From positions 94 through 64,093 of the forward strand of contig JAUVZF010000009.1 of assembly GCA_030602705.1 (NCBI GenBank): a stretch of DNA of 64,000 nt, given 5' to 3'. Positions 8,353 to 64,000 of the stretch are shown here, piece by piece (within the stretch, counting starts at the first letter, position 1; every line of letters starts with the position of its first letter). This stretch comes from Planctomycetota bacterium (GTDB taxonomy: Bacteria; Planctomycetota; Phycisphaerae; FEN-1346). The notes below the pieces were generated by a model. The model saw only the letters and a program-made list of their open reading frames with translations, was not told the DNA's origin and ran no database searches. The translations under genes and the position numbers were made by a program.

Positions 8353-9765
<1,413 letters not shown>

Positions 9766-37224: not shown

Positions 37225-37692
37225 ATGACACAGGCGCCACCCGAAGCACCGTCCAGCCCGCCGCTGGCCGGCACGAACTCGCGCCGCCTGGCCATCGCGA
37301 GCATCATTTGCGGGGCGCTCGGGATCGTGACGTGCGGCGTGTCGGCGGTCCTCGGCCTGATCCTGGGCATCATCGCCCTCACGAGGTGCGGCCAAGGCAC
37401 GGCCCCAGGGCGCAGCAGAGGCCTAGCGATCGCCGGGGTGGTCGTCTCGGGGTTCATGATCCTGGGCGGCGCGGCCATCGACCTGCCCCTGCTCGGGCTG
37501 CTGATTCTCTTCCGAAACGAGATCAACGACTGGACGGTCGATATCTGGGAACAGGCGCAGGACGAGGCCGAGAAGGAGCAGGATGACTTCTTCGGAGAGG
37601 AGATGGACCGGCTAGACCTCCCCCGGCCGCACCTCTGGCTGACACCGTCGCCGGCTGCATGCCTGTGCCCTGCCGCAAGGACAACGCCATGA
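37225..37692 (+). CDS. DUF4190-like two-TM small membrane protein (N-terminal-only paralog of the two downstream genes)
   Basis: Strong SD AAGGAGAG. TM pair with GxxxG. It lacks the H-X9-DG domain. Confidence 0.6.
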   Translation: MTQAPPEAPSSPPLAGTNSRRLAIASIICGALGIVTCGVSAVLGLILGIIALTRCGQGTAPGRSRGLAIAGVVVSGFMILGGAAIDLPLLGLLILFRNEINDWTVDIWEQAQDEAEKEQDDFFGEEMDRLDLPRPHLWLTPSPAACLCPAARTTP

Positions 37693-38408
37693 CCCAGCCG
37701 CCTCCACCGCCATCCGGTTACCCGCCGCAACAGGCGCCCGGCCCGCCGACGAGCGGCCTGGCCGTGGCGAGCCTCGTCTGCGGCATCGGGGGGGTTTGTA
37801 CCTGCGGCCTCGGCGGCATCGCCGGCATCGTCCTCGGCATCATGGCGATGGGGCGGATCAAGCGCAGCGGCGGCCAACTCGGAGGCAGGGGGTTGGCCGT
37901 GGCCGGCCTCGTCGTTTCCATCATCGCTATCATCGTCGGACTGGCAATCATCGCCGGGACGGGCGCGGTCTGGTTCTACGCCCGGCGCCAGTACGACGTC
38001 ATGCAGTTCAGCGCCAACGTCCGGGTCCTGTGCGAACACGTCGTAACGTACAGCGCGGTCAACGACGGCCGGCTGCCGCCGCCGGACTCGTGGCCGGACG
38101 CCCTCATGGCAGAGGGCCTGATCACCGACCTCGACATCCTGACCGACCCGGCCGACCCCGGCGCCGGCCGCGCGATTGCGATGAACCGGGCCGTGGTCCG
38201 CGCCCCCACCTACGACGTGGCACGCGCCGGCGATACGGTCCTGCTGTTCGAGTGCGCCCCCGGCAGCCCGCTCTCCGGCGGCCGCGACCTCCTGCCGCCC
38301 GCGCCGCGACACGCCGGCGGGTACGTCATCGGCTTTCTCGACGGCCGCACCCGGCAGGTGCCGCCCGAGCGACTCGACCGCCTCGTCTGGAACCCGAAAC
38401 CCGGATAG
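37689..38408 (+). CDS. membrane-anchored (DUF4190-like N-term) protein with C-terminal H-X9-DG (DUF1559-type) domain
   Basis: FECAPGSPLSGGRDLL...HAGGYVIGFLDG, i.e. H + 9 residues + DG. ATGA overlap with the upstream gene. Confidence 0.75.
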   Translation: MTQPPPPPSGYPPQQAPGPPTSGLAVASLVCGIGGVCTCGLGGIAGIVLGIMAMGRIKRSGGQLGGRGLAVAGLVVSIIAIIVGLAIIAGTGAVWFYARRQYDVMQFSANVRVLCEHVVTYSAVNDGRLPPPDSWPDALMAEGLITDLDILTDPADPGAGRAIAMNRAVVRAPTYDVARAGDTVLLFECAPGSPLSGGRDLLPPAPRHAGGYVIGFLDGRTRQVPPERLDRLVWNPKPG

Positions 38409-38431: not shown

Positions 38432-39166
38432 ATGGCTAAGCCGTCTCCGCCTGAACCGGCCGAGACGCCACGGGCGCCGAAACGCAGACCCACGTACAGC
38501 CGGTTGGCCCTCGCCAGCCTCATCTGCGGCGTCTGCGGGGCGCTGTTGGTTACTACCGGGCTGCCGGCGTGGGGGTTGGCGCTCATCGGCATCCTTGGAC
38601 TCGTTCTGGGTGTGGCTGCTGTCGTCCAGGTTTTTCGCAGCCTGGGTCTGGTCAGCGGCTACATGAGCGCCATTCTGGGCATCGTGCTCTGCGGTCTGTG
38701 CGTGGTCGATGCGCTGACCGTCACCGACATGCCCCCCCATATCGAACTCGATATCCAGAACAACCTTTCGCAGTTATGCAGGGGGGCGCTGGCATACGCG
38801 ACGGACCATGAAGGCAGATTCCCGCCCGCAGACTCCTGGCACGAAGTCTTCATGGCGGAGAAGTACCTGGGCGACGACTCGGTCTTCCAGGACCCCCGCA
38901 ACCCGGACGCGGGCCGGGCGTACGCGATGAACGCCCATCTGACCGCCGTGCGCCTGGAACAGGTGCAGCACCATCCGCGGATGGTTGCCTTTTTCGAGTG
39001 CGCGCCGGGGAGCCCGCCCTCCGGCGGTCGCGAACTCCTGTCTCCTGAGCCTCCACATCGCGGCGGCTACCTCTTCGGCATGGTCGACGGGCATGTGGAG
39101 TGGGTCCCGCGGGACGAACTCGACAACCTGATCTGGGACCCGAGGGGGGAAGGGCCAGACAACTAG
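38432..39166 (+). CDS. paralog: DUF4190-like N-terminus + H-X9-DG domain protein
   Basis: FFECAPGSPPSGGRELL...HRGGYLFGMVDG. Confidence 0.75.
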   Translation: MAKPSPPEPAETPRAPKRRPTYSRLALASLICGVCGALLVTTGLPAWGLALIGILGLVLGVAAVVQVFRSLGLVSGYMSAILGIVLCGLCVVDALTVTDMPPHIELDIQNNLSQLCRGALAYATDHEGRFPPADSWHEVFMAEKYLGDDSVFQDPRNPDAGRAYAMNAHLTAVRLEQVQHHPRMVAFFECAPGSPPSGGRELLSPEPPHRGGYLFGMVDGHVEWVPRDELDNLIWDPRGEGPDN

Positions 39167-49492: not shown

Positions 49493-49713
49493 CCCTATTT
49501 CATGGCCCACGTGCCGCACGCGGTGCATCCCACCCGCGACGTTGGGTGGCATTGTAACGTTCGGCCATGCCGCTTGCCAAACGCTTTCGCCGGCCGCGCC
49601 GGCCCTCGGCCGAGGCGCTATTGAAAATGTGCCGCGCCGCCGTGTATCCTGGAGGCGGTCTGTTGGTGGACGTGTCCCGTACGTGGTCGGGTCCGAGCGC
49701 GGGGAAGATTCCC

Positions 49714-52281
49714 ATGACGGCGCGGTATGCCCCAGGCCGGTTCGTGCTTTTTTGTTTACTGGTTGCCGCACACGTCTCGTCGGCGCCGGCGGGAACCGCC
49801 GCTGCCGAGCGCGGCCAGCGCAATCGCACGCTGCTGGACCAACTCGATACGCCGCTGCTGTTCGTGAAGCGGCTCAACTACCTCGGGATTCACATCTACG
49901 ATACGTACTACAAGTGGCGGCCGGGCGGCGGCATCTACGTTCTGGAGAACCCGTCCGCGCCGCCTGCCGAGCACAGGACCCGGCCCGTCATCGACCCCAC
50001 CATGCCGGAGACGCTCGGCGCAGGCATCTACAGCGATCCCGAACTCTCCTGGGACGGCAAGCGTCTGCTCTTTTGCTACAAGCCCAGCCGGAACGGATCG
50101 ACGAGCATTTACGAGATCGGCGTGGACGGCAAGGGCCTGCGGCGGCTGACCGATCCCGCCCCGTACTGCGCCGCCTACAAGGGCAGAGAGGCGGGCAGCC
50201 ACGACGTGGCGCCGGCCTACCTGCCGGACGGTCGCATCGTCTTTCTCTCGACGCGGCCGAATGGTCTGGTGCCCTGCAACAACACGGGCGTTGCGACTCT
50301 ACACGTGATGAACGCCGACGGTTCCGACATCCACCCCATCTCGGTCAACAACGTCAACGAGTTCGACCCGTGCGTCCTGCCCGACGGCCGCATCCTCTTC
50401 GGCCGATGGGAGTACGTGGACAAGACGGCCCTGACGCAGCAGTCGCTCTGGACGGTCTTCCCCGACGGCACGAACGAGACGGCCCTGTTCGCCAACAACA
50501 TGGTTCACCCCGAGGCGCTGCTGGACGCGCGGCCGGTGCCGGGGGCGCTTCCGCTGGTGGCGGCGTCGTTCACGCGGCACAACTGCCCGCCGCGCGGCAA
50601 GGTCGGGTTCGTGGATACGTGGCTCGCAAAGAACGGGGCCGAGGCGCTGTTCAACCTGGAGGACCACCACCGGCCCACCGTTGACACCGGCGAGTCGTGC
50701 GAGCCCTGGCCCCTCTCGCGAGACGTTATCCTGTACAGCGGCAGGCCACGGGGGCGCAAGTTCAACGCCATCATGATGATCGACCGAGGTGGGCGCAAGG
50801 CGGTGGTCTGCGCAGACCCGAACATCGACTGCCATTCGCCGATCCCTGTCAGGCCGCAGTTGCGGCCGCCCGTCATCGCCCACAACACGCGGCGCGACGA
50901 GCGCGCCGGACGCTTCTTCGTTCAGGACGTTTACCAGGGCCTGACGGGGGTGAAACGCGGTGAGGTCAAGTGGCTACGCGTCATCGAAGAGACCGTGCGC
51001 ACGAGCCCGAGCCCCGGCGGCGCCCTCAACCAGACCTTCCTGATGAGTGCGGTGCTCGCCTGGAGTGCCAAGAACTTCCTGGGCGTCACGCCGGTCGAAC
51101 CCGACGGGTCGGCGTACTTCGAGGTGCCTTCGGGGCGGGCGGTCTATCTCCAGGCGCTCGACGGCGAGGGACGGCTGATCCAGAGCATGCGGACGTTCGT
51201 CCAGGCGGCGCCCGGCGTTACGCGGTCCTGCATCGGGTGCCACGAGTACAAGTTCTCGGCGCCGGCAAGCGCCGCGAGCGCCCGCGCCCGGAAACGCGGG
51301 CCTGGGCGGTTGAGGGCCGAATCCTGGGGCAGCGGGTTCATCGACTATCCGAGCATGGTCCAGCCGATACTGGATAAGCACTGTGTGCGATGCCACGGCG
51401 GCCAAGGGGGGATCTCGGCAAGCCTGGACCTGACGGGTGGGTGGACCGAGTATTTCAGCATCAGTTACGAGAACCTCGTCAGCCGGCGCGAAACGCAACT
51501 GGTGGCCTATTTGATATCGGGCATCGACTGCATGAACGGCACGTCGTACTGGTCGGCCAAGATCTTCCCGCCGCGATTCCACGGCTCCGGGGCCGCGCCC
51601 CTTGCGGACGTTCTCGTCAACGGAGACAAGGGCCACAAGAAACGCTTCACCGGCCTCTCGCGCCCCGAGCGCGACCTGTTGCTGGCCTGGATCGACACCA
51701 ACGGCCTGTACTACGGCACGTGGGACTACACAAGGCACGGGTGCCGCATCAAGGCCTGGGGCGGCATCAAGAACGCCCTGATGGCCCGGATGCAGAAGGC
51801 CGGATGCGCCCGGTGCCACGGCGACGGCAAGCGGATCCCGCGATTCGAGAGCGACTGGTTCAACTTGAAGCGGCCCGAACTCAGCCGCATCCTGCGGGCG
51901 CCGCTCGCCGAGGGCAGGAAGGGTTTCGGCCTCGCGCTGTGCCGCGACCGCAAGGTCGATCCGCGCCGGCAACGCGTCCATTTGCTGCGGACCGGGCGAT
52001 ACGTCCACGGCGCGGAGCCGCTGGAGAAGTTCAAGCCGCAGCCCACGCCGCCACCGCCGCCCGACGGAGGCCGGCCGGTGGCGTCCTTTGCCTCGACCGC
52101 TGATCCGCACTACCGGGCGATGCTGGACATCATCCGCGACGGGCGGCGACAGGCGCTGGCGGCGCCCCGCGTCGATATGCCCGGCGCGGATGTCCAGCCG
52201 GGCAGTTTCCGCCAATTCGTGCCCCACGTATTAAGGAGTGCTGTAGGTGGTTACGGGCATATGCAGGAGGGAGATTCGTAA
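49714..52281 (+). CDS. secreted beta-propeller (PD40-like) + tri-haem c-type cytochrome protein, HzsA-like architecture, paralog 3
   Basis: Signal MTARYAPGRFVLFCLLVAAHVSSAPA. CxxCH x3 (SCIGCHEY, HCVRCHGG, CARCHGD). Confidence 0.85.
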   Translation: MTARYAPGRFVLFCLLVAAHVSSAPAGTAAAERGQRNRTLLDQLDTPLLFVKRLNYLGIHIYDTYYKWRPGGGIYVLENPSAPPAEHRTRPVIDPTMPETLGAGIYSDPELSWDGKRLLFCYKPSRNGSTSIYEIGVDGKGLRRLTDPAPYCAAYKGREAGSHDVAPAYLPDGRIVFLSTRPNGLVPCNNTGVATLHVMNADGSDIHPISVNNVNEFDPCVLPDGRILFGRWEYVDKTALTQQSLWTVFPDGTNETALFANNMVHPEALLDARPVPGALPLVAASFTRHNCPPRGKVGFVDTWLAKNGAEALFNLEDHHRPTVDTGESCEPWPLSRDVILYSGRPRGRKFNAIMMIDRGGRKAVVCADPNIDCHSPIPVRPQLRPPVIAHNTRRDERAGRFFVQDVYQGLTGVKRGEVKWLRVIEETVRTSPSPGGALNQTFLMSAVLAWSAKNFLGVTPVEPDGSAYFEVPSGRAVYLQALDGEGRLIQSMRTFVQAAPGVTRSCIGCHEYKFSAPASAASARARKRGPGRLRAESWGSGFIDYPSMVQPILDKHCVRCHGGQGGISASLDLTGGWTEYFSISYENLVSRRETQLVAYLISGIDCMNGTSYWSAKIFPPRFHGSGAAPLADVLVNGDKGHKKRFTGLSRPERDLLLAWIDTNGLYYGTWDYTRHGCRIKAWGGIKNALMARMQKAGCARCHGDGKRIPRFESDWFNLKRPELSRILRAPLAEGRKGFGLALCRDRKVDPRRQRVHLLRTGRYVHGAEPLEKFKPQPTPPPPPDGGRPVASFASTADPHYRAMLDIIRDGRRQALAAPRVDMPGADVQPGSFRQFVPHVLRSAVGGYGHMQEGDS

Positions 52282-52299: not shown

Positions 52300-52419
52300 A
52301 CGCCGCGGGTGGGGCCGCAGTACCAGGTCGCCGGCCGTATCGCGGGACTGAAACTCTACCGGCGTGCCCTGTCGGTGGAGGAAGCCGCCGCAGCCTTCAA
52401 GGCGGAGAAAGCGCCTTGA
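52300..52419 (+). pseudogene. remnant of a LamG/concanavalin-like domain C-terminus (...GRIAGLKLYRRALSVEEAAAAFKAEKAP*)
   Basis: Short in-frame segment with a LamG-tail-like sequence and no upstream ORF. Confidence 0.3.
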
Positions 52420-52511
52420 CAGGGGGCCGATTTGGGTGTACGGTACATGTAGCCATTGTGGGGATAGGCAGTTCTTTTGACCCTTGGTCGCCGGAGGGCG
52501 GAAGGAACGCC

Positions 52512-53306
52512 ATGCCCCGAATTACCCCCCTTTTGCTGGTTCCGGTTGTGTGCGCAGTATGCGTCTCGCCGGCCTCGGGCACGCTCTTTCTTGAGGACAC
52601 GTTCGACGGGACCGGTCCGCTGGACCCGCTGAAATGGACGGTCACCGAAAGCGCGGCCTGCGTTAGCGTGGGCCGGGTCGGCGGGGTGGCGCAGATGAGC
52701 CTGACGGAGGACTGTGTCGTCCATGACTACGGCCAGGCGATGAGCGTTGACGACTGGACGCCGCCGGCGGTCGGCAGCCTAGACTGGTCCGCCGATTTCC
52801 GAAAGAGCAGTATCGGGGCCGACAAGCCGATGCTGGAGCCGCTGCGCTTCGAGAGTCCTGCCGGCAGCATCAGCGTCTGCCTCATCTACGGGTCGATGCA
52901 CGCCGTGCTGTACATCTTTGAGGACGACGGCTCGATCGGGACCACGGTGGCGCTGCGGGACGCGCCGGTGACGGGCAACCTGTTCGAACCCGGAACCGGG
53001 AACAACTACTGGCAGTATCTGTCGGTGGACCTGGCGGCAGAGGACGTGTCGGCCACGCTCAGCGGCACGCACGACGGTGAGGACTACGAGCAGTACTGCG
53101 CGACCGTGACGGACTACACGAACTACTTCGACCTGGAGAAGTCCCGGCAAGGGAACTTCGGAATGTTGACCGAGGCGAAGGTGCAGGGCGGGATTGCCCA
53201 GGCGGCTGAGTTCGACAACGTGCTGTTGACGCCGGAACCGGCGACGGCCGTGCTGATAGGCCTTGGCGGACTCATCGTGGGCCTTGCCCGCCGCCGGGCG
53301 GCGTAG
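52512..53306 (+). CDS. PEP-CTERM sorting-signal protein 2
   Basis: SD GGAAGGAA. Signal peptide. C-terminus PEPATAVLIGLGGLIVGLARRRAA. Confidence 0.85.
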   Translation: MPRITPLLLVPVVCAVCVSPASGTLFLEDTFDGTGPLDPLKWTVTESAACVSVGRVGGVAQMSLTEDCVVHDYGQAMSVDDWTPPAVGSLDWSADFRKSSIGADKPMLEPLRFESPAGSISVCLIYGSMHAVLYIFEDDGSIGTTVALRDAPVTGNLFEPGTGNNYWQYLSVDLAAEDVSATLSGTHDGEDYEQYCATVTDYTNYFDLEKSRQGNFGMLTEAKVQGGIAQAAEFDNVLLTPEPATAVLIGLGGLIVGLARRRAA

Positions 53307-53392
53307 TCGAGTTCTCCGCTCACAAAAACGCGCGTGCAGGGCAGGGTGCCCCGCACGCGTTCGTCTTGGCCATAGGGCGGTCGGTTTGTGCG

Positions 53393-54253
53393 TTAATCGT
53401 GCTGGGTCGCGGCACCGGCGGCAACGGGCTCGGCCTGTTTGGTCTTTCGGACGATTGTGAAGAAGAGTTTGACCAGGTCGGGATCAAACTGCTTGCCGGC
53501 GTTGACCTCGATCTCGGCCAGTGCCTCCGGCGAGGTCATGGCGCCGCGATACGGCCGGTCGGAGGTCATGGCGTCGTAGGCGTCGACGATGGCCAGGATG
53601 CGTGCGCCAATCGGTATCTCGTCTCCCTTCAGTCCGTTGGGGTAGCCCTGACCGTCGTATCGCTCGTGGTGGCTGAGGATGATGCGGCGTGCGCCGTCGA
53701 GAAAGGCGAGGTGCCGGACGATCTTGGCGCCGCGTTCGCAGTGCATCCGCATGAGGGCGAACTCTTCGGGGTCGAGGCGTCCGGGCTTGTCGATCACCCA
53801 TTCCGGGACGGCGATCTTGCCGATGTCGTGCAGCGCAGCCGCCCGCGCGACCTCCGTGAGTTCGTTTGCTTTCAGGCCGGCCAGCGTCGCCAAGCGGACC
53901 GCCAGTTCCATAACGCGGTCGGTGTGGCCGCGCGTGTAATTGTCCTTGGCCTCGACGGTCTCCATGAGGCTGGCCATGGTGTTGACGTAGTGCTGCTCGA
54001 TGGCCTCGCGGTCTTTGAGTCCGCCGATGGTGACGGCGGCGGCGTCGCTCGTGTCGGAATCCCCGTTCTTGCGCTGGAATCGCGGTGCTCTACTGGGCTC
54101 GCTGCCGGGAACCAGCCTGACGTTGCCGCATATCGCTGGCGGAGTACGGCAGTTGGGCGCAAGGTTCCGGGTGGGATGCTGAGAAATGGCGATCTTGCCC
54201 GGAGAAGCGGCATCGAGGGCCGACATCCCGATGACCGTTGGTCGGCGCCGCAA
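53393..54253 (-). CDS. HD-GYP domain protein (c-di-GMP phosphodiesterase family)
   Basis: HDIGK ... HHERYDGQGYPNGL. Start uncertain. Confidence 0.8.
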   Translation of the reverse strand: MRRRPTVIGMSALDAASPGKIAISQHPTRNLAPNCRTPPAICGNVRLVPGSEPSRAPRFQRKNGDSDTSDAAAVTIGGLKDREAIEQHYVNTMASLMETVEAKDNYTRGHTDRVMELAVRLATLAGLKANELTEVARAAALHDIGKIAVPEWVIDKPGRLDPEEFALMRMHCERGAKIVRHLAFLDGARRIILSHHERYDGQGYPNGLKGDEIPIGARILAIVDAYDAMTSDRPYRGAMTSPEALAEIEVNAGKQFDPDLVKLFFTIVRKTKQAEPVAAGAATQHD

Positions 54254-54352
54254 GGTTCGGAATTGCTAAAGGCAGGCGGCTTTCTATGCCGAACTAGCGC
54301 AAGCCACAGAGGATAACGTGTTGTTGGGGTTGGGGCGGTCTGGCGCTGTCCT

Positions 54353-56062
54353 GTGTGGCACCGGCGCACCTGCGGCATGCACCTTCCCCTAAGGTGCGAA
54401 GGCGTGAGTCTGCCGCACGAAACAGCCGAACAGGGCGATCCGGCCAACGGCCCGCCGTCTGCGCAGGCCGAGAAAGGGGCTCAGGGCGCCCCCGCCGCCG
54501 TGGCCGAGCACGACCCGGCAGCCACCGAAGAACTGATCTCCCAACTCGGTCTGGAACCGGACATGGTGGGGGGTCACGCCGTTGACCCGGGGGTCGTCCA
54601 TCTCCTGCCCGAGGGCCTGGTCCGCGAGCACCTGGCCATCCCCGTTTGTATGAAGGCCGGGGTCCTGGTCCTGGCAACCTGCTGTGACACCGACCTCGCC
54701 CTGCTCGACCAGATCGAACTCATGACCGGCCACCGCGTGGAGCCGGTCCAGGTGAGCGAGAAGGAGATCCGGCGTACCATCGAACGGTACTTCACCGTCG
54801 ACCGCAGTTTTGCGGAAGGTCTCAGCGACGTGACCGGCGGCGAAAACAGCGACGCCGCAGGGCCGGTCGTCTCCCTGAACGAGCGGCTCGGGGCCCGCCG
54901 CGCCGCGCCGGCCGTACGCTTGGTTGATTCCATCCTGCGAGGAGCCGCACGACGCGGCGCCAGCGACATTCACATCGAGCCCCTCGCGAACGAACTGCTC
55001 GTCCGGTACCGCATCGACGGGGTACTGCACGACATGATGCGCGTGCCGAACAACATTCAGGAAGAGGTGGTCTCGCGCGTCAAACTCATCTCGGCGCTTG
55101 ACATCACCGAGCACCGCGCGCCGCAGGACGGCCGCATCAGCATTCGCATGGAGTCCTCTGACTTCGACATGCGTGTCTCGACGCTGCTGACGGTCGAGGG
55201 CGAGAAGATTGCCATCCGGCTGCTGAACAAGTCGTCCGCCAGTCTGGGCCTCCGCCAGTTGGGCATGCCCGACGAGCAGCGAGACCTGTTCGCCAAACTC
55301 ATCACCCGGCCTTACGGCATGATCCTGCTGGCAGGGCCGACCGGCAGCGGCAAAACCACCACGCTCTACGCGGCCCTGCGGGAAGTGGACTGCAAGCACC
55401 TCAACGTGACCACCATCGAGGACCCCGTCGAGTATTCCTTCGACCTCGTGAACCAGATCCAGGTCAACCCGGCGGTGGGCTTGACGTTTGCGGGGTCGCT
55501 CCGGACGGTTCTGCGGCAGGACCCGGACATCATCATGGTCGGCGAGATTCGCGACACCGAGACGGCTCGCCTCGCCGTCCAGGCCGCCATGACGGGGCAC
55601 CTGGTGTTCTCAACGCTCCACGCCAACGATTCCCCGAGCGTCATGGACCGCCTCAAGGACCTGGGCGTTCCGCCGTTTCTGATCGTCTCGACCCTGGTGG
55701 CGGCGATCACACAGCGTCTGGTGCGGCGGGTTTGCCCGGAGTGTGCCGAGACCTACCAGCCCCCGGAGGAACTCGTGGCCGGAACCGGCCTGGAAGGCAT
55801 CGAACTCAAACACGGTCGCGGGTGCGACATGTGCATGGACACGGGATACCGCGGACGCATGGGCATGTTCGAGATCTTCCCGGTGACCGAGGCCGTTCGC
55901 GAGACGTTCGTGCAGGGCGCCTCCAGCGACGCGCTGAGGACCCTGGGCCGCGAGACCGGCATGATCACCATGCGTGATTCCGCCATCGAGGCCGTCCGCA
56001 ACGGCCACACGACCATCGAGGAACTTCGCCGCATTCTGCCTGCTGAGGATATTGAATCGTGA
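54353..56062 (+). CDS. gspE: T2SS/T4P assembly ATPase (GspE/PilB family) with N-terminal GspE_N domain
   Basis: Walker A GPTGSGKTTT, Asp box and His box. A tetracysteine CPEC...CDMC is also present. Confidence 0.9.
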   Translation: MWHRRTCGMHLPLRCEGVSLPHETAEQGDPANGPPSAQAEKGAQGAPAAVAEHDPAATEELISQLGLEPDMVGGHAVDPGVVHLLPEGLVREHLAIPVCMKAGVLVLATCCDTDLALLDQIELMTGHRVEPVQVSEKEIRRTIERYFTVDRSFAEGLSDVTGGENSDAAGPVVSLNERLGARRAAPAVRLVDSILRGAARRGASDIHIEPLANELLVRYRIDGVLHDMMRVPNNIQEEVVSRVKLISALDITEHRAPQDGRISIRMESSDFDMRVSTLLTVEGEKIAIRLLNKSSASLGLRQLGMPDEQRDLFAKLITRPYGMILLAGPTGSGKTTTLYAALREVDCKHLNVTTIEDPVEYSFDLVNQIQVNPAVGLTFAGSLRTVLRQDPDIIMVGEIRDTETARLAVQAAMTGHLVFSTLHANDSPSVMDRLKDLGVPPFLIVSTLVAAITQRLVRRVCPECAETYQPPEELVAGTGLEGIELKHGRGCDMCMDTGYRGRMGMFEIFPVTEAVRETFVQGASSDALRTLGRETGMITMRDSAIEAVRNGHTTIEELRRILPAEDIES

Positions 56063-57228
56063 GCACCGACGTTCTGGAAAAACCGAAACCTGCCGGACGG
56101 GCCGCCCGAACCGGCCCGGGCGCCAAACCGCCTGCGCGCGGCGGCGGGCCGCCCAAGGACTCCAAGGGCGGCGGCTTCCTTTGGAAGTCTCGCGTCAGCG
56201 AAGGCGCCCTGGTGCCGCTGTGCCGGCACCTTGCGGCCCTGGTGGGCAGCGGCATCAGCCTGACGGAATGCCTGAGGACGTTCGCCGAGGAGACGCCGCC
56301 CGGCACGCTGCGCCGGGTCCTGGCCGACATTATCAACGACATCGAGGCGGGGCGCAAACTCTCCGTGGCCCTTGAGCGGCACCCGGAGCATTTCTCGCCG
56401 TATTTCCGGGCGTCGATCTGGGCCGGCGAGGAAAGCGGCCAGATGCCCGAAACCCTCGACCGCCTCGCCTGCTACCTCGAAAGCAAGCAGGAGACCAGGC
56501 AGAAGATCCGCAACGCCTTCGCGTACCCGATTACGCTGATCGTGGTCATCGTCGGCGTCGTCTCGTTCCTGCTCCTGTACGTGGTTCCGGTCTTCGCGAA
56601 CGTGTACCAGCGGATGGGCGTAGGCCTGCCGCTTCCGACGCAGGTGCTGGTCGATTTCAGCGACCTGCTCATTACGTCGCCGTGGGTCCTGGCTCTGCTG
56701 GTTGGCGGCTTCATCGGGCTGCTTGCCTGGATCCGGAAGAGCCCCGCCGGACGCTTGTGGTTCGACCGGTGGAAGATCCGTGTTCCGATCGTCGGCCCGC
56801 TGCTCAAGAAGATGGTTCTCTACCGCTTCATGCGCTCCTTCGGCGAGATCATGGGCGCGGGCATCCTGGTCCTGAAGGCGCTGGACCTGGCGGGCCAGGT
56901 CACCGGCAACGAGGCCTTCATCCAGTCGCTGGGACCGGTGCGGGCGGACATTCAGCGCGGCACGGGTCTGACGGGACCGCTGCGGCGGACGGGCTGGTTC
57001 TCCCCGTCGCTTCTTCAGGTGATATCGAGCGGCGAGCAGTCCGGGCGCGTGTCCGAGTTGATGGGCCGCGCTGCCGATATCCTGAGCCGCGACGTCGACC
57101 TGACGCTGAAACGCGTCGTCGGACGGATCGAGCCGCTGCTGACGGTCGCCATGGCCCTCATCGTCGGGCTCGTCCTGTTGGCCGTGTATCTGCCGATGTT
57201 CGACGTCATGCAGCACGTAGGTAAGTGA
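56059..57228 (+). CDS. gspF: T2SS/T4P inner-membrane platform protein (GspF/PilC family)
   Basis: Two GspF repeats with three TM segments. Overlaps gspE by 4 nt. Confidence 0.85.
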   Translation: MSTDVLEKPKPAGRAARTGPGAKPPARGGGPPKDSKGGGFLWKSRVSEGALVPLCRHLAALVGSGISLTECLRTFAEETPPGTLRRVLADIINDIEAGRKLSVALERHPEHFSPYFRASIWAGEESGQMPETLDRLACYLESKQETRQKIRNAFAYPITLIVVIVGVVSFLLLYVVPVFANVYQRMGVGLPLPTQVLVDFSDLLITSPWVLALLVGGFIGLLAWIRKSPAGRLWFDRWKIRVPIVGPLLKKMVLYRFMRSFGEIMGAGILVLKALDLAGQVTGNEAFIQSLGPVRADIQRGTGLTGPLRRTGWFSPSLLQVISSGEQSGRVSELMGRAADILSRDVDLTLKRVVGRIEPLLTVAMALIVGLVLLAVYLPMFDVMQHVGK

Positions 57229-57303
57229 TGGTTCGCCCTGGCCGCGCAACGGGCGCCAGCGGGGCATGCACAGAGGAGCATGGAGTTGAAAGGAGTTGTC
57301 AGA

Positions 57304-57632
57304 TGTCCAGGAAGAGAGGTTTTACGCTGATTGAGTTGTTGCTGGTGGTTGTCATCCTGGGGCTCTTGGCTGCTGTGGCCATCCCCCGGCTGGCTGCTTC
57401 TGGGAGTGATGCGAAGAAGAATACCTGCAAGTCCAACATCGCGCTCATCAACTCCCAGATCGAACTGTGGTCCGTCAGCCACGACGGGGTGTATCCGGCC
57501 GACGCAACCGAGTTCAACGCCAACATCCTGAACAACACGGATATCTTCCCCGACGGCCCGCCGGTCTGTGGTTACGGCACCGCCTACACCTACGACACGA
57601 GTACCAAGCGTGTCGAGCCGCACAGCCACTAA
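57304..57632 (+). CDS. major pseudopilin/pilin, copy 1 (prepilin leader ...KRG|FTLIELL)
   Basis: Class III signal. Two Cys. 109 aa. Confidence 0.85.
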
Positions 57633-57789
57633 CCGCGCGTCGGCGCGGTCAATGGCGGACCACCAGTAGCCGTCCTGGCGTTGGATTGAGGGCGGAGGCT
57701 CGTGTTTTGGTACGCAACGAGGCGGCGTGCCCCCGGCCAAGTGGGGTACGCAGCCAGGCAAACTGGTCGCATTTGAAGGAGGACGCGCT

Positions 57790-58125
57790 ATGCCACGGCA
57801 TAGGAATAAGGGCTTTACCCTGATTGAGTTGCTGCTGGTGGTGGTCATACTCGGACTCTTGGCCGCCGTGGCCATTCCGAGGCTGGCCGCCTCTGCGAGT
57901 GATGCGAAGAAGAATACCTGCAAGTCCAACATCGCGCTCATCAACTCCCAGATCGAACTGTGGTCCGTCAACCACGACGGGGTGTATCCGGCCGACGCAA
58001 CCGAGTTCGGCACGAACATCCTGAACAATACGGATATCTTCCCCGACGGCCCGCCGGTCTGTGGTTACGGCACCGCCTACACCTACGACCCGAGTACCAA
58101 GCGTGTCGAGCCGCACAGCCATTAA
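57790..58125 (+). CDS. major pseudopilin/pilin, copy 2
   Basis: ~95% identical to copy 1. Confidence 0.85.
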   Translation: MPRHRNKGFTLIELLLVVVILGLLAAVAIPRLAASASDAKKNTCKSNIALINSQIELWSVNHDGVYPADATEFGTNILNNTDIFPDGPPVCGYGTAYTYDPSTKRVEPHSH

Positions 58126-58283
58126 CCGTGCTTCGCCGCGGTCAATGGCGGACCTGGAGTCGGCGCCCTGGCCTCAGATTGAGGGCGGAGGCTCGTGTTT
58201 TGGCCACGCAACGAGGCGATACGCCTCGGGCGGACTAGTGTGCGCACGCAAGTAGCCCCGGCTCATGCGAAGGAGGGCGGACG

Positions 58284-58619
58284 ATGCACATGCACAGAAA
58301 GAGGGGCTTTACCCTGATTGAGTTGCTGCTGGTGGTGGTCATCCTCGGACTCCTGGCCGCCGTGGCCATTCCGAGGCTGGCCGCCTCTGGGAGTGATGCG
58401 AAGAAGAACACCTGCAAGTCCAACATCGCGCTCATCAACTCCCAGATCGAACTGTGGTCCGTCAACCATGACGGGGTGTATCCGCCCAACGCGGGCCAGT
58501 TCAACACCAACATCATGAACAATACGGATATCTTCCCCGACGGCCCGCCCGTCTGTGGTTACGGCACCGCCTACACCTACGACACGAGCACCAAACGCGT
58601 CGAGCCGCACAGCCACTAA
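58284..58619 (+). CDS. major pseudopilin/pilin, copy 3
   Basis: ~92% identical to copy 1. Substitutions cluster in YP(A/P)(D/N)A(T/G)(E/Q)F(N/G)(A/T)NI(L/M). Confidence 0.85.
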   Translation: MHMHRKRGFTLIELLLVVVILGLLAAVAIPRLAASGSDAKKNTCKSNIALINSQIELWSVNHDGVYPPNAGQFNTNIMNNTDIFPDGPPVCGYGTAYTYDTSTKRVEPHSH

Positions 58620-58752
58620 CCGCGCGCGGGCGCGGCTGGCGGACCAGGCAAGACGGATGACCGCGTCTGACGGGTCGAATCAGGTGCCGGAGGAAAGATC
58701 GGTGTGCGGAATGTACGGCCGTCGTGAGAGCGTCGCGGACAGTGTGAGCAGG

Positions 58753-59238
58753 ATGGCGCGGGCGCGCTGGCGCTGGCGGCGTGCTCCGGCCGGCGTCACG
58801 CTCATTGAGTTGCTGGCGGTGGTCGTGATGCTCGGCCTGCTGGCGGCGGTTGCGCTGCCCCGGCTGGCCGGGGCCAACCTCTGGATGGCCGAGGGAGAGG
58901 CCGCCGCCTGCAAGTGTGCCGCCACGCTCCGCCTGGCACGGCGTATGGCCGTCGAGAACGCCCCTGACAATCCGCTGGGGTACATGGTCGTGTGTACGCA
59001 AGGGTCGTACCGGATCGTTGACCCCAAGGCGCCGGAGGCCGGCGAGGTGATCGCGCTGGCCGACGGGTGGCAGTTTGACAGGAGCGACTACGTGGTGCTG
59101 CTCGACCCATACGGCGGCGCCCGGCCGGCAGTGGGGCTGCCGGACGAACTTGTCATCCGCAAGGGTACCTACAGGTGGATTATCCACCTCGAGCCGGCCA
59201 CCGGGTACGTGTGGTACGAGCAGGGCGAGGAAAGTTAG
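58753..59238 (+). CDS. minor pseudopilin (GspH-like)
   Basis: RRAPAG|VTLIELLAVVVMLGLLAA. Confidence 0.65.
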   Translation: MARARWRWRRAPAGVTLIELLAVVVMLGLLAAVALPRLAGANLWMAEGEAAACKCAATLRLARRMAVENAPDNPLGYMVVCTQGSYRIVDPKAPEAGEVIALADGWQFDRSDYVVLLDPYGGARPAVGLPDELVIRKGTYRWIIHLEPATGYVWYEQGEES

Positions 59239-59637
59239 GTGCGCTACGCAAGGCGACATCACAGGGGCCTGACCCTGCTGGAACTGCTGCTGGCGGCGGC
59301 ACTGCTGGCCGCGTGCGCCGTGCCGATCGTCGAGGGCACGACCTATGCCCTGGACCTCGCGTATCAAATCGAAACGCGAACACGGGCCACGCTGCTCGCG
59401 CAGCAGGAGATGGAGGCCGCCATGGCCATCGCAGCCGAGGACTTCGACCGGAGCCTCTGGAAGGACTCCGAGGACCTGGGCGACGCCTTCCTCGTCACGA
59501 TCTCGGGCATCCGCGCCGACCTGCGCAAGACCTTTACCGTCGAGGTCGGCCGCGATGCGAACCGCAACGCCCAACTCGACGCCGACGAAGTCCTCGTCGC
59601 GTTTGTGACGCGCGTTGCGGACATGACGACCTACTAG
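59239..59637 (+). CDS. minor pseudopilin (GspI-like)
   Basis: HRG|LTLLELLLAAALLA. 132 aa. Confidence 0.65.
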   Translation: MRYARRHHRGLTLLELLLAAALLAACAVPIVEGTTYALDLAYQIETRTRATLLAQQEMEAAMAIAAEDFDRSLWKDSEDLGDAFLVTISGIRADLRKTFTVEVGRDANRNAQLDADEVLVAFVTRVADMTTY

Positions 59638-59641
59638 CAAG

Positions 59642-61126
59642 GTGGTGGTAACCGTGGTGACGGACACGACGGCCCGAACGCGGCATGGCCGGCGCGGGTG
59701 GACGTTGCTTGAGTGTCTGCTCGTGGTGGCCATTATGGCGATGGTCTTCGCGGCGACCGTGCCGCTCCTGCGTTCCGAGACGATGGCGCTGGATACGGCC
59801 CGGCCGATGATCCTCAAGGCCCAGGAGACCCGGTACGCCCTGGCCCGCGTGGCGGCGGCCCTGCGGCAGGCGCGGGCCGTGACCCAGGTCACCGACGGTG
59901 GAGGGCCCGCTGCTTCAATGACGTTCCTTGCCGGCGACGGCACGCTGACGACGTTCCAGCGAGACGCCGCCTCAGACGAAGTGCGGTACGGCGCGACCGG
60001 GTCGGAGGCCGTCCTCGCGAAGAACTGCACCGGCCTGGCGATCACCTGTTTCGCCGCCGACGGGCAGGTGCTTCCACCGGTGCCTATGAGCCTCGCAAAG
60101 ACCGCCGGTGTCTCTATCGCCATGACGGTCGTGGACCCGCACGGCAAGAGTGGGCCGACGACCGTGGCGACCCTGGCCGCCCTTGCTCGCACCAGGCCCA
60201 CCGTCCTCATCAACGAGATCATGTACAAGCCGCCTGGCAGTTACGGCGCCAAGGACAAACACCAGTGGGTCGAACTCCACAACCCGACCCCCGACGCCAT
60301 CGACGTGCGGGACTGGCTTCTCTGGACCAAGGACCAGAACGACCCCGATGTCATCGGCCCGGACGCCTACCACGGTACCGGCACGACGGTCATCCCGCCC
60401 GGCGGCTACGCCGTTATCACCGACAAGGACACCAACCTCTACAACGAGGTCCTCGAGAACGGCGATTTCGAGAGTGGCAACATGGGCGATTGGCACTTCT
60501 CCTCGGGCGACTGGTCGCGCGATTTCGGCAGTGCCGCTTCCCGCGACTACAAGGTCACGCTGGAGGGCATTGGTTGGACCACGATGTACCAGGATTTCAA
60601 GATTCCCGCCGGCGCCGACGGCGACGTGCGGCTGACGGTGCGGGAACGGTACAATCCGAGTTTCGACAGGCCGAGTGTCAGAATCCGCATCACGAATCGC
60701 AGCGGCGGTGTCTTACTTACCGTCTACGACGGCAACTGCCACTCCCACTCTGACTGGACGGCACACTCCGCCGACCTGACGGTCTTCAAGGGCGTGGACG
60801 CGCGGCTCGAAATCAGCGGCTATCGGAGCAATTACTTCAGAAGTTACGTGCATGTCGATGCCGCCACGATCAACTGGGGGCCCGTCTCGTGGAACTGCGT
60901 TCGGCTTCAGGTGGACGACAACGAGATCGGCAAAAACCTCGAGGACAAGCAGGTCTTCCTCGGCGAAGGCAACGGCCTGCATGACGCCGTCGTTTTTGAG
61001 AAACAGTGGGGCGGCGATGACGACGGATGTTCCCTCAGCCGCACGAGCCCCTTCGACCCCGCGACGGAAGAGGAGTCCTGGGGTCCGGCGGCCGACGGAG
61101 GAACGCCCGGAGAGCCGAACTCATGA
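59642..61126 (+). CDS. large prepilin-like protein (GspJ position) with C-terminal lamin-tail-domain (LTD)-like module
   Basis: RRG|WTLLECLLVVAI. LINEIMYKPPG...HQWVELHNPTPDAIDVRDWLLW, an LTD-type motif. Confidence 0.7.
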   Translation: MVVTVVTDTTARTRHGRRGWTLLECLLVVAIMAMVFAATVPLLRSETMALDTARPMILKAQETRYALARVAAALRQARAVTQVTDGGGPAASMTFLAGDGTLTTFQRDAASDEVRYGATGSEAVLAKNCTGLAITCFAADGQVLPPVPMSLAKTAGVSIAMTVVDPHGKSGPTTVATLAALARTRPTVLINEIMYKPPGSYGAKDKHQWVELHNPTPDAIDVRDWLLWTKDQNDPDVIGPDAYHGTGTTVIPPGGYAVITDKDTNLYNEVLENGDFESGNMGDWHFSSGDWSRDFGSAASRDYKVTLEGIGWTTMYQDFKIPAGADGDVRLTVRERYNPSFDRPSVRIRITNRSGGVLLTVYDGNCHSHSDWTAHSADLTVFKGVDARLEISGYRSNYFRSYVHVDAATINWGPVSWNCVRLQVDDNEIGKNLEDKQVFLGEGNGLHDAVVFEKQWGGDDDGCSLSRTSPFDPATEEESWGPAADGGTPGEPNS

Positions 61127-61689
61127 GCGGTTATTCTGCACGAAATCCGGGGCGGACGAGGGGGTCCGAGGAGAACTGCTTCGCGTGTGAGCGCGGCCCG
61201 TACGGGCCGCGACAGTCGCGTCGAAGACGCGGTGGTTGCGGAGAACCACCGCGCAACACTCAGGTCGCGCCCCTTAGCAGACGCGGCGTTGCCCTGGTCC
61301 TCGTGATCTTTGCCATCGCCTTTATCACGGTCCTGGCCGTGGCGATGCTCGACGAGGCGACCCTCGACCTGGCGATCCTGCGGAACCACACCAGCGGTCT
61401 GAGGGCCCTCTACGCCGCCAACGCCGGCATCTCGGAGGCCATCGTCGCGCTGCGCGAAGAGTACGACACCACCAACACCGTCGCGGGGACACTGACGCTG
61501 CCGGGCGGCTCGACCGCCACCTTCTCGGCCGAGATCGACAACGACAAGCCGGTCGTGACGGTCACGTCAACGGGCCAGGCCGACGGGTTCACACGCCAGA
61601 TGACGGCCCGGCTTGTCGTCGGGCAGCCCGACGCCTGTGAGGAGCCGTATCCGGTCCGCGTCGTCTGGTGGCGCGAGGCAGCGGAGTGA
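61123..61689 (+). CDS. minor pseudopilin (GspK-like; start uncertain)
   Basis: RRGVALVLVIFAIAFITVLAVAML. A GGCCCGTACGGGCC palindrome lies within the putative 5' end. Confidence 0.55.
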   Translation: MSGYSARNPGRTRGSEENCFACERGPYGPRQSRRRRGGCGEPPRNTQVAPLSRRGVALVLVIFAIAFITVLAVAMLDEATLDLAILRNHTSGLRALYAANAGISEAIVALREEYDTTNTVAGTLTLPGGSTATFSAEIDNDKPVVTVTSTGQADGFTRQMTARLVVGQPDACEEPYPVRVVWWREAAE

Positions 61690-61733
61690 GAGCGTAACTC
61701 GCACGAGCAAGGATTCGCCTAAGGAGAGGCTGA

Positions 61734-63251
61734 ATGGCGGTACGGACGGCAGTTGGCATCACGTTGGACGCCGGCACCCTCCACGCCGTTGAATTGGCGA
61801 CCGACGGCGAGGCCGTGGTGATCCGGCGTGCCGTCTGCGACCAACTCCCGCCGGGGGCGTTCGCCGACGGTGGGCTGACCGACGCGAACGCCGTGGCGGA
61901 GACCGTCCGGCAGGTCCTGCGTGCCAACCACATGCCCCGCCGCAACCTCTGTGTGGCCCTCGGCGGGAAACTGGCCATTGCACGCGTCATCGAAGCCAGC
62001 GCCTCCGGCGCCGAGGTCCAGCACGTCCTTCAGGAACGCATCAGCCGATACGCCATCTACGAGGACCTCGACGTCCTCTGGAAGGCGACGCCGCTCGAGA
62101 CCGGAGAGGGCGACAAGCGGGCGTTCCTGGCGGCCGCAGTCTCCAGGGACGAAGTCGCCACGCTCCTGCCGGCGCTCAGGCGAGTCGGCGTCCGCGTCTC
62201 GCATGTCGAGCCGTACGCCCTGGCTGCCATCCGTAGCCTGGCCACGTGTGCGGCCGGGCAGGAGCAGCCGACGATCCTGATGATTCTGCGAAACGAGTCT
62301 ACCGATTTCGTGATCGTCAAGGGGTCCTGGCCGCTGTTGGTCCGGTCGGTGGACGAGGGGGCGTGCGAACTGGCCCGCCGCCCGGAGAAGATCGAAGACC
62401 TGCTGATCGAGGCCCGCCGCTCGGTGGACTTCTGCAAGAGCCGCTTCGACGGCGCCCAGCCGCGCCTCTGGGTCAGCGTCGCCGCGTGCGAGGATCCCGT
62501 GGTGGCCAGGGGATTGCTCGCGTGCGTCAAACGGGACGTTGCGGCGGAGGTCGAAGCCTTGCCGGAGTGGCCGGAGGTGACCCCCGGCGCCAGCGTGGAC
62601 GAGTACGGCCGCCAGTCCTGGGCCGCCATCGGCGCCGCCATGATTGCCCTGGGCCGCGACGAAATCACGCCGCACCTGAACCTGGTGCCCGACGAGTGGC
62701 CGGCCGTCGAGACGGTTCAGAAGCAACTGATGGGCTTGGCCGCCTCAGTGGTCGCGGCGGTCGTTGCGATGGTGATCGCGTCGATGATGATCCGGATGAG
62801 CGCGGGGGATGTGGCCAAAGCGGCTCAGGCGGCCTCCGTTCGGATGCAGGCCCACACAGTCAGCGTTAGGGCCGCCTCGGAACTGAAGCGGCAAGCGGCG
62901 GAGGCGGCGGCACGCGTCAAACTCTGGAAAGACGTCCGGGCCACGATACGGCCGACGGACTGGACGGCCGCCCTCGAGGCCATCACCGGGCAGATTCCCG
63001 AGGGCGTCCGCGTCCGAGAGATCACCTGCCGGCGCGGCGTGCTTCGCCTCGCCGGGGAAACCCAGGTCACGGACCTGGTGCACCAGGTGGTCGAGCGGCT
63101 GAATCGGCTGCCCTGTCTCGAAGAGGCCAGCATCGAGCGGCTGGTTCGGGCCGCGGGCCTCGATGCTCAGTTGCCGGAATACGTCATCACCTGCCGGTTG
63201 CGCGAGCAGCAACCCGCGCAGCCGGAGAAGGATAAGAAGGATGCTCGTTGA
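61734..63251 (+). CDS. GspL-like / PilM-PilN fusion (actin-like cytoplasmic domain + TM + periplasmic domain)
   Basis: ASKBHA-type N-terminal half. TM helix AASVVAAVVAMVIASMMI. Confidence 0.7.
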   Translation: MAVRTAVGITLDAGTLHAVELATDGEAVVIRRAVCDQLPPGAFADGGLTDANAVAETVRQVLRANHMPRRNLCVALGGKLAIARVIEASASGAEVQHVLQERISRYAIYEDLDVLWKATPLETGEGDKRAFLAAAVSRDEVATLLPALRRVGVRVSHVEPYALAAIRSLATCAAGQEQPTILMILRNESTDFVIVKGSWPLLVRSVDEGACELARRPEKIEDLLIEARRSVDFCKSRFDGAQPRLWVSVAACEDPVVARGLLACVKRDVAAEVEALPEWPEVTPGASVDEYGRQSWAAIGAAMIALGRDEITPHLNLVPDEWPAVETVQKQLMGLAASVVAAVVAMVIASMMIRMSAGDVAKAAQAASVRMQAHTVSVRAASELKRQAAEAAARVKLWKDVRATIRPTDWTAALEAITGQIPEGVRVREITCRRGVLRLAGETQVTDLVHQVVERLNRLPCLEEASIERLVRAAGLDAQLPEYVITCRLREQQPAQPEKDKKDAR

Positions 63252-63825
63252 ATTCCTGGTTAAACGGGCGGTCCGTGAGCGGTATGCTCTGGGCGCAGCC
63301 ATTGTCGTGCTTGCCATCGTGGGCTGCTACACCGCGGGGATCCGCCCCGCGATGGACGCCGCAGAGGGGCACGAGGGGAACCTTCGGACAACCGAGAAGG
63401 TGCTCATGCTTCAGCAACGCCAACTGAACCTGCTGCAGGCCGAAACCAAAGCCAGCCAGAAGATGCTGGATCAGCTCAAGGACTTGCCGTGTCCGTGGGT
63501 GCAGGCCGACAAGGCCGACGTCGTCCTCCAGGAACTCCAGAAGGAGGCCGAGGCCCTTGGCTTGTCGGTCCGCTCGGTTGTTCGCGAGTCGCTCACCGGG
63601 ATGCGTCTGAAAGACGCGCCGCGGCCGGTGTCGCGGCTGCTGGTCCGTCTGGAACTCGACGGACCGTATGCGAGTGTCATGGAGATGTTCCGCCGCCTCA
63701 GCAAGGGCGACCTTGCCGTCGGGTTAGAGGAACTCTCACTCAAGGGAAACGACGAGCCGCCGTTCGACGTGAAGGTCGTGCTCCGCTTGCGGATGCCCGT
63801 CGTGGAAGGGGACGATCATGATTAG
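63241..63825 (+). CDS. GspM/PilO-like inner-membrane assembly protein
   Basis: Single N-terminal TM helix then a coiled coil. Overlaps the upstream gene. Confidence 0.6.
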   Translation: MLVEFLVKRAVRERYALGAAIVVLAIVGCYTAGIRPAMDAAEGHEGNLRTTEKVLMLQQRQLNLLQAETKASQKMLDQLKDLPCPWVQADKADVVLQELQKEAEALGLSVRSVVRESLTGMRLKDAPRPVSRLLVRLELDGPYASVMEMFRRLSKGDLAVGLEELSLKGNDEPPFDVKVVLRLRMPVVEGDDHD

Positions 63826-64000
63826 GATGCTGATGGCAACCCTCCTGGCCGCGAGCCTGACCGGCGTCGCCGCGGCCGCCGCGAACTCGAAGGATGCTGC
63901 CGACCAATCCGCCGCCGGGACTGCCACGACGAAGGGGGAAGACCGGGGCTGGTTTTCACGCGTCAACCCCTTCTCGCCGTTGATCAACCCGGAGGCGATG
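63818..64000 (+). CDS. secreted protein, 5' partial (candidate next T2SS component, e.g. GspC/N/secretin)
   Basis: Signal MIRMLMATLLAASLTGVAAAAA. Runs off the window. Confidence 0.5.
   Translation, partial: MIRMLMATLLAASLTGVAAAAANSKDAADQSAAGTATTKGEDRGWFSRVNPFSPLINPEAM

Follow-up and report, generated by a model that had tools for sequence, protein, structure and literature searches.

Towards the end of a 64,000-nucleotide stretch of DNA from an uncultured planctomycete of the class Phycisphaerae (GenBank assembly GCA_030602705.1, metagenome-assembled contig JAUVZF010000009.1, positions 94 to 64,093; the whole stretch is hereafter called the window), a locus resembling those of type II secretion systems (T2SS) carries three successive genes for its major pilin-like subunit, here named G1, G2 and G3. 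The question raised by this locus is whether the three copies are real, how they have evolved with respect to one another, and what role such an array might play. From the comparisons reported below, we hold it to be reasonably probable that they are a genuine tandem set of three translatable paralogous major-subunit genes of a Phycisphaerae-specific type IV filament machine, serving mainly as a supply or regulation array to which G3 adds a surface variant.

The array was delimited by Tandem Repeats Finder at positions 57308-58626, with a period of 493 bp, 2.7 copies, 88% matches and no indels, and a repeat search of the window gave start-to-start spacings of 493 and 494 bp for the three in-register units. 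Its architecture is a gene plus a spacer, present twice, followed by a third gene with an unrelated downstream flank. All three genes lie on the (+) strand and encode what we term major mini-pseudopilins: G1 (57303-57632; 109 amino acids (aa); N_methyl match 6.8e-9) with the leader MSRKRG/FTLIELL, the slash marking the end of the leader, G2 (57790-58125; 111 aa; N_methyl match 1.8e-9) with MPRHRNKG/FTLIELL, and G3 (58284-58619; 111 aa) with MHMHRKRG/FTLIELL. Each copy has its own Shine-Dalgarno sequence 7-9 nt before the ATG (AAGGAG at 8 nt in G1, AAGGAGG in G2 and G3), and all pass the test for a class III signal peptide (PF07963, 35-37 bits, cutoff 21.2; TIGR02532, 33-34 bits, cutoff 16.3), their N-termini taking the form …KRG/FTLIELLLVVVILGLLAAVAIP with a short basic leader and G-1, F+1 and E+5. 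The leader KRG/FTLIELL, which a preliminary description of this DNA had ascribed to every copy, applies to G1 and G3, that of G2 ending in NKG. A full N-terminal helix, start codon, leader and Shine-Dalgarno sequence are present in 3/3 copies, with no 5'-truncated or silent copy among them, so that repeat finding and translation bear out the description's central observation of three intact major-(pseudo)pilin genes, side by side in a locus of the E-F-G-H-I-J-K type.

At the nucleotide level, the differences among the copies form a mosaic in which (i) the ~65 nt immediately before each start codon and the leader peptides are copy-specific, upstream region and leader together being 48-67% identical between copies, (ii) the first 27 mature codons of G1 are set apart from those of G2 and G3 by 14 synonymous changes, (iii) codons 28-60 are nearly identical in all three, and (iv) G3 departs from G1 and G2 at five amino acids within codons 61-71 (PADATEF to PPNAGQF, and L to M) and in a few synonymous changes near the 3' end. 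Residues 61-71 tell G3 from G1 and G2 (…GVYPADATEFNANILNNTDIFPDGPPVCGYGTAYTYD… versus …GVYPPNAGQFNTNIMNNTD…), and the variable strings quoted earlier for the three copies (G1, YPADATEFNANIL; G2, YPADATEFGTNIL; G3, YPPNAGQFNTNIM) are correct. The G3 variant patch, PPNAGQFNTNIM, has two acidic residues fewer than its counterpart in G1 and G2. These 11 codons hold six of the eight non-synonymous differences between the mature G2 and G3 proteins (Fisher p = 8e-6), and the mature copies are 92-95% identical overall, G1 and G2 differing at 5 of 104 residues. The earlier statement that the differences cluster in one short segment is therefore right for the amino acids and does not extend to the nucleotides, where the synonymous block of G1 and the copy-specific upstream regions and leaders are added.

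In order to place this segment in the protein, we used the wider family of G1-G3, which a search of 5.8 billion proteins returned as a tight group of ~55 clusters of 109-113 aa, all members with an organism named by the source being Phycisphaerae. The most variable 11-residue window of the whole family starts at residues 68-72 and coincides with the G3 variant patch. In the structure predicted for G3 by AlphaFold2 on the family alignment (mean pLDDT 89.3), where residues 11-61 form one helix, residues 70-78 a second, short one and the C-terminal end a small hairpin, the patch forms the loop and short helix that follow helix 1. The corresponding post-helix region faces outward in other pilins. 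By alignment, model and analogy, the variable segment is plausibly surface-exposed, in agreement with the preliminary description.

To trace the history of the copies, the units of the window and of related loci were aligned with their flanks, and identities were determined for each segment. Over the upstream region, leader and codons 1-27, G1 and the first copies of the related loci L008 and L009 are 91-95% identical. For the upstream region and leader, G1 matches the first L008 copy at 91% and G2 matches the second at 94%, the latter pair being 100% identical in codons 1-27, as against only 53% (upstream and leader) and 83% (codons 1-27) between G1 and G2 themselves. From codon 28 to the end, the two copies within a genome are the more similar (G1 and G2, 96%; the two L008 copies, 97%), and the orthologous pairs are lower, at 92-95%. 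A quartet test on the coding sequence gave the same picture, all informative sites in codons 1-29 grouping by paralog (12/12) and all those in codons 39-99 grouping by genome (8/8), and the two L008 genes encode identical mature proteins behind different leaders. As judged from these alignments, we show concerted evolution of old paralogs, of at least two types (g1 and g2) that predate the split from the related species: gene conversion has homogenised their 3' parts, and its breakpoint falls between codons 29 and 39. The 3' coding sequence behaves as a single unit with the adjoining first part of the spacer, and the 5' coding sequence as another with the proximal upstream region.

Copy number was determined as the full-length family members per locus, by tblastn and further contig look-ups. 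With the counts for the relatives to be read as lower bounds, there are three copies in the window and two in tandem in L008, L010, L011 and L155, and a single copy is present in L009, in L156 and in almost every relative at a greater distance; a metagenome scan added few close relatives. The second copy of L008 has the head of G2 and, from about codons 96-98 on, the tail and downstream flank of G3 (96% identical), the product expected of an unequal crossover that removed, or conversely added, one unit. On this evidence from aligned sequences, we show that copy number has changed by in-register unequal crossing-over in the conserved 3' end. In L010, L011 and L155, copy 2 carries a distinct loop with a one-residue insertion (…WTISSNNG…), and because this loop has been kept in these relatives, the g1/g2 pair is old and was once more divergent; in the lineage of the window and L008, conversion has, by the same comparison, overwritten the copy-2 loop. 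Dispersed paralogs exist besides the tandem ones, since some more distant relatives, L020 (479-787, -) and L023 (608-919, -), have a second family member, 44-45% identical, on the opposite strand and ~8 kb away from the locus. Several 'binchicken' records of metagenome-assembled genomes (MAGs) with the locus (L008, L009, L010, L012 and L013) are titled 'uncultured Anaerolineales' or 'Pirellulales' and look mislabelled.

The three units might nevertheless have been produced by assembly, either as an expanded repeat or by chimeric threading of strain variants with one or two copies. The source of the window is a contig assembled from a metagenome, a single 66,653-bp NCBI contig is the sole record of the exact G1, G2 and G3 products, an independent Logan assembly of SRR14872667 (L001) breaks inside the shared 3' part of G3, and L008, a very close relative, lacks exactly one unit while keeping the register. 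The break in L001 is, however, as expected if the reads hold several copies, and this assembly reproduces exactly the sequence downstream of G3. Moreover, the units differ at ~12% of positions, and each of them has a proximal upstream region and leader of its own, with orthologues among the copies of other assemblies. Identity between the g1-to-g2 and g2-to-g3 spacers is just 73%, exact runs common to the units reach at most 55-74 nt, which is below normal read length, and four independent assemblies contain two-copy tandem arrays whose heads show the same paralog specificity. Diverged copies of this kind are not something that assemblers invent, and we regard an artefact as very improbable; a chimeric join of strains with different two-copy arrays is unlikely.

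In the supply or regulation array that we favour, one prepilin peptidase would process all three precursors for polymerisation by one machine, T2SS-like in its G-H-I-J-K pseudopilin set and type IV pilus-like in its PilM-PilN/secretin-last half, and the array would mainly raise, or separately regulate, the supply of the most abundant subunit. This role is supported by the identical mature L008 proteins and the retained copy-specific 5' regions; of the gene-dosage effect suggested in the preliminary description, plausibility is what these identical proteins provide. G3 would be a variant with a neutral exposed post-helix patch (PPNAGQ) instead of an acidic one (PADATE). The paralog types retain their own proximal upstream region, leader and synonymous pattern over the first ~29 codons, the remainder of the coding sequence and the adjoining part of the spacer are overwritten time and again by conversion within the genome, and unequal crossing-over adds or removes whole units, giving one, two or three copies in close relatives. 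A less likely, though by no means negligible, explanation is that the copies are functionally distinct and non-redundant, being differently regulated or built into a heteropolymeric fibre. It would account for the paralog-specific upstream regions and leaders being kept across species despite adjacent conversion, and for the altered patch charge of G3, and it has precedents in Streptococcus sanguinis, whose adjacent full-length major pilin genes pilE1 and pilE2 are both expressed and co-polymerise (PMC6497953, PMC10628169), and in the tandem pilins pilA1 and pilA2 of Legionella pneumophila, where one of the two predicted major pilins builds the pilus (PMC13170364). Against it stand the near-identity of mature G1 and G2, the complete identity of the L008 copies, and the single-copy relatives L009 and L156, which evidently manage with one gene. 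We consider improbable a programmed surface variation in which the copies act as a recombination reservoir and the exposed patch is shuffled against phages or grazers, as with Neisseria pilE/pilS. Gene conversion between the copies has been demonstrated, the amino-acid differences are concentrated in the family's hypervariable and probably exposed segment, and copy 2 of three relatives has a loop of its own; yet every copy is full length with its own start codon, Shine-Dalgarno sequence and leader, none is a 5'-truncated or promoterless cassette, the conversion observed homogenises, and the repertoire of three donors and 5-7 variable residues is tiny. A silent-cassette system of the Neisseria type was rejected, every copy being complete and translatable. 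The recombinational variation of the fibre subunit proposed earlier is hence retained as recombination between copies on an evolutionary time scale and not as a programmed process. We would also give little credence to a distinct, undescribed class of type IV filament, namely a surface fibre whose minimal subunit of 104 residues derives from GspG and bears a disulfide and possibly a metal-binding H-x-H, topped by a Lamin Tail Domain tip pilin, in which the array, as a module driven by recombination and variable in copy number, tunes fibre abundance and surface charge under pressure from phages or grazers. Several points, besides the single contig and the possible chimera mentioned above, weigh against a supply array of three genes: the copy numbers of the relatives come from short-read MAG assemblies, in which repeats may collapse; the distinct copy-2 loop in several two-copy relatives may point to functional divergence, and not just dosage, as the ancestral role; the fibre could be either a periplasmic pseudopilus or a surface pilus; and scans of positions 57000-59000 for sigma-70 promoter and intrinsic terminator consensus sequences gave no site, and a permissive Rfam search of 53000-64000 no match, so that separate regulation is deduced from the copy-specific upstream regions.

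As a phenomenon, such an array is already known; the present one adds a new example in which concerted evolution is well resolved, and is fairly ordinary behaviour for a gene family. If the supply or regulation array is the right reading, it offers a clean natural case of a major fibre subunit, of the kind found in T2SS and type IV pili, evolving as a small tandem family, in which a sharp conversion breakpoint spares each copy's regulatory head and copy number shifts between close relatives. It also draws attention to a conserved, uncharacterised filament system of the Phycisphaerae with a mini GspG-like subunit and a Lamin Tail Domain tip pilin. For annotation, it would mean that such loci should not be called canonical T2SS and that pilin copy numbers taken from short-read MAGs are unreliable.

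The relationship of the subunit to GspG was examined with single models and with profiles. The GspG model TIGR01710 matches G1-G3 in the N-terminal half only, at 46-49 bits (cutoff 88.85), PF08334 (T2SSG) gave no hit with G3 even at E<=10, and the family member P0040 scored 18.5 bits with it (cutoff 21). Profile-profile comparison of the family with an alignment of PF08334-bearing GspG proteins (hhalign) gave a probability of 99.6% (E 2.6e-24) over 97 columns, reaching residue 100 of 111 and running through the Y-x-x-D-G-x-YP motif and the P-x-(W/Y)-G-x-x-Y-x-Y strand, with FPDGPPVCGYGTAYTYD aligned with P-DPWGN-Y-Y. The match stops at column 112 of 143 of the GspG profile, columns 113-143 having no counterpart in the family, whose proteins end ~11 residues after the aligned Y-x-Y strand (…TKRVEPHSH). 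The missing C-terminal part of GspG includes its Ca2+-binding loop. Because the homology ends where this part begins, we class the subunit, by its sequence, as a truncated GspG-type mini-pseudopilin without the C-terminal part of GspG. The mature protein of ~104 residues is predicted to form one long helix and a second, short one before ending in a small tail. The family alignment shows an invariant N-terminal helix, an F-P-D-G…C-x-Y-G-x-x-Y-x-Y-D block, two invariant cysteines (C44 and C91 of G3) and an invariant C-terminal H-x-H (…PHSH). The cysteine pair hints at a disulfide staple and H-x-H perhaps at a metal site, which would stand in for the C-terminal part of GspG that the family lacks, and the cysteines could fix the small tail to the helix. 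A Foldseek comparison of the model with the PDB gave no significant match, and a profile search of the PDB gave matches limited to the N-terminal helix (geopilins, PilA5, and GspG 5wda).

In the spacers, short G+C hairpins found by folding follow all three stop codons, in keeping with the hairpin of the preliminary description. The one directly after the G1 stop (57632-57649, +) has 7 bp and no U tract, and is not a consensus intrinsic terminator; that after the G2 stop (58125-58142, +) is weaker, with 6 bp including one G-U pair, and that after the G3 stop (58620-58635, +) has 6 bp and also occurs after the second L008 copy. The folding z-scores of the three spacers range from -0.9 to -1.5, and the post-stop hairpin is for this reason the only noteworthy structure in them. 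A spacer motif said to be triplicated, the 27-mer GATTGAGGGCGGAGGCTCGTGTTTTGG, has two exact matches in the window, with none expected by chance (57684-57710 and 58177-58203, both +); an exact search of the window did not find it after G3 or before G1. The count of a shared upstream motif, CGCAACGRGGCG, was not above chance. A sigma-54-dependent response regulator (receiver, Sigma54_activat and HTH_8 domains) at 8353-9831 (-) prompted a scan for the sigma-54 promoter consensus, which gave no site near the pilin genes and a window-wide count equal to chance.

Two genes precede the array on the (+) strand, as stated in the preliminary description and supported by domain matches. The first, at 54353-56062, its exact start being uncertain, encodes an assembly ATPase of the GspE/PilB family (PF00437 T2SSE, 1.4e-122) with an MshEN-type N domain, scoring almost equally with the GspE model TIGR02533 (532 bits, cutoff 630) and the PilB model TIGR02538 (531 bits, cutoff 676), and at 174 bits with the PilT family model (cutoff 319). 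The second, at 56059-57228, encodes a platform protein of the GspF/PilC family (PF00482 in two stretches), which scores higher with the GspF model TIGR02120 (305.6 bits, cutoff 424) than with PilC models (229 bits). Downstream of the array, and again on the (+) strand, are four minor pilin genes: (i) a gene H-like by position at 58702-59238, called from L001, with a probable start at ATG 58753 (MARARWRWRRAPAG/VTLIELL; N_methyl 2e-4) and weak hits to the GspH and GspG N-termini; (ii) an I-like gene (…HHRG/LTLLELL) at 59239-59637, with matches to N_methyl (2.2e-4) and, below cutoff, to the GspI model TIGR01707 (9.4e-4); (iii) a gene J-like by position at 59654-61126, encoding a modular minor pilin of 490 aa with a prepilin N-terminus and a Lamin Tail Domain (PF00932, 8e-12) at residues 184-291; and (iv) a short K-like gene at 61123-61689, whose product has a hydrophobic N-terminus without Glu+5 and matches the GspK model NF037980 in its N-terminal part only (8.2e-7, 28.8 bits, cutoff 130). 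The Lamin Tail Domain pilin is kept in the J position of all related loci (e.g. L002 11425-12873 and L005 11375-12853); it resembles a 'modular pilin', a concept that it fits (PMC8179133), and is possibly a tip adhesin or ligand binder.

The next gene (61734-63251, +) encodes a PilM-PilN fusion, with PF11104 PilM_2 and PF05137 PilN domains, a match to TIGR01175 pilM (3.3e-16), PilM chains 2ych and 5eox as its best PDB matches and no hit with T2SSL; on these matches, its product is GspL-like in topology and PilM/PilN-like in sequence. It is followed by a gene for a GspM/PilO-like protein (63241-63825, +; PF04612 T2SSM, 27.9 bits, cutoff 27.8) and by the 5' end of a GspC/PilP-like gene with a weak GspC_delta match, which is cut by the end of the window (63833-64000, +). 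L001 is identical to window positions 58559-64000 (100%) and continues with a 226-aa protein that is weakly GspC_delta-like and then the beginning of another whose signal is of the lipoprotein type. The C-like protein (18-29 bits with GspC_delta, cutoff 150) and the secretin are the last two genes in L001, L002 and L005, and in the related loci L002-L007 the last position is held by a secretin of 523-543 aa in which a Pfam scan found only Secretin, Secretin_N and a weak STN domain, and which scores slightly higher with PilQ (229-241 bits) than with GspD (222-224 bits), both below cutoff. Read from these gene assignments, the order E-F-G-(H-I-J-K)-PilMN-M-C/P-secretin is a gspEFGHIJK head joined to a pilMNOPQ-like tail.

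Because the secretin comes last and the curated GspE, F, G, K and D models all stay below cutoff, we describe the locus, on its sequence features, as T2SS-like, with neither the canonical C-D-E-…-M order nor proven T2SS identity. The earlier label of a canonical-order T2SS was not upheld: the ATPase is equally GspE- and PilB-like, the G, K, F, E and secretin products fall below the NCBIfam cutoffs, the supposed 'L' is PilM plus PilN by Pfam and PDB sequence matches, and the secretin lies at the 3' end as in pilMNOPQ. No PilT/PilU and no prepilin peptidase (PilD/GspO) was found in the locus or among the annotated open reading frames of the window. Taken by its gene content, it is a conserved type IV filament locus of the Phycisphaerae, uncharacterised but assembled from known parts, and our literature search found no paper on a Phycisphaerae or planctomycete pilus or T2SS of such a type.

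Compared with known systems, the locus shares with the gspE-F-G-H-I-J-K set of T2SS the class III signal peptide with G-1, F+1 and E+5, the profile-profile homology of its subunit to GspG, a pilin followed by four minor pilins in the H-I-J-K positions of which the last lacks Glu+5, the absence of a retraction ATPase from the locus, and the GspM-like and weakly GspC-like proteins. It differs from T2SS in a mature subunit of ~104 residues in which an invariant cysteine pair and a C-terminal H-x-H stand in place of the C-terminal part of GspG, in the below-cutoff scores of the GspE/F/G/K/D equivalog models, in the PilM-PilN fusion at the 'L' position, in the terminal location of the C-like protein and secretin, where the canonical T2SS operon has GspC and GspD at its 5' end, in the Lamin Tail Domain on J, and in the three copies of the major subunit gene. 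With the pilMNOPQ genes of type IVa pili, it has in common the PilM_2 and PilN domains followed by O/M-like, P/C-like and secretin proteins, the last slightly closer to PilQ than to GspD; unlike in these pili, PilM and PilN are fused, PilT/PilU is missing from the locus and the annotated window open reading frames, pilin and minor pilins alike belong to the GspG/H/I/J/K type, and the secretin is short (523-543 aa).

As a set of adjacent, similar, full-length major pilin genes in one pilus locus, the array resembles pilE1/pilE2 of S. sanguinis and pilA1/pilA2 of L. pneumophila; here, by contrast, there are three copies that are far more alike (mature proteins 92-95% identical), whose concerted evolution and copy-number change are demonstrable, and which belong to a T2SS-like machine of an uncultured planctomycete. 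In Neisseria pilE/pilS, non-reciprocal recombination takes place between pilin copies and variation is concentrated in exposed segments. The present array shares recombination between pilin copies and variation in a segment that is here probably exposed, and differs in the lack of silent 5'-truncated cassettes and in a net effect of homogenisation. Another parallel is the lpl cluster of Staphylococcus aureus, in which the evolutionary unit spans the 3' part of one open reading frame, the spacer and the 5' part of the next (PMC2568036); in both, neither the repeat register nor the recombination tracts coincide with the gene boundaries, although the array described here belongs to another protein family and is much smaller.

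Further observations concern the neighbourhood of the locus and the rest of the window. Genes of the HD-GYP type (PF13487 HD_5) flank the filament locus in the window (53393-54253, -) and in the relative L002 (2949-4895, -, and 17722-18921, -), and together with the MshEN-type N domain of the ATPase they hint at control by cyclic di-GMP; the cyclic di-GMP-binding motif of MshE was not found by eye in the MshEN-type domain, and no further search was made for it. A secreted protein with a PEP-CTERM tail (PF07589, just below cutoff) is encoded at 52416-53306 (+), on the upstream side of the filament locus and next to the HD-GYP gene. Two adjacent paralogous genes for DUF4190 membrane proteins (37659-38408 and 38432-39166, both +) represent another small tandem duplication in the window. 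Finally, three large paralogs at 3500-6817, 31333-33717 and 49567-52281 (all +) contain a 'hydrazine synthase alpha subunit middle domain' (PF18582, E 1e-19 to 1e-35); two of them also have PD40 repeats, and one, which adjoins the pilus locus, has a cbb3-type cytochrome c motif.

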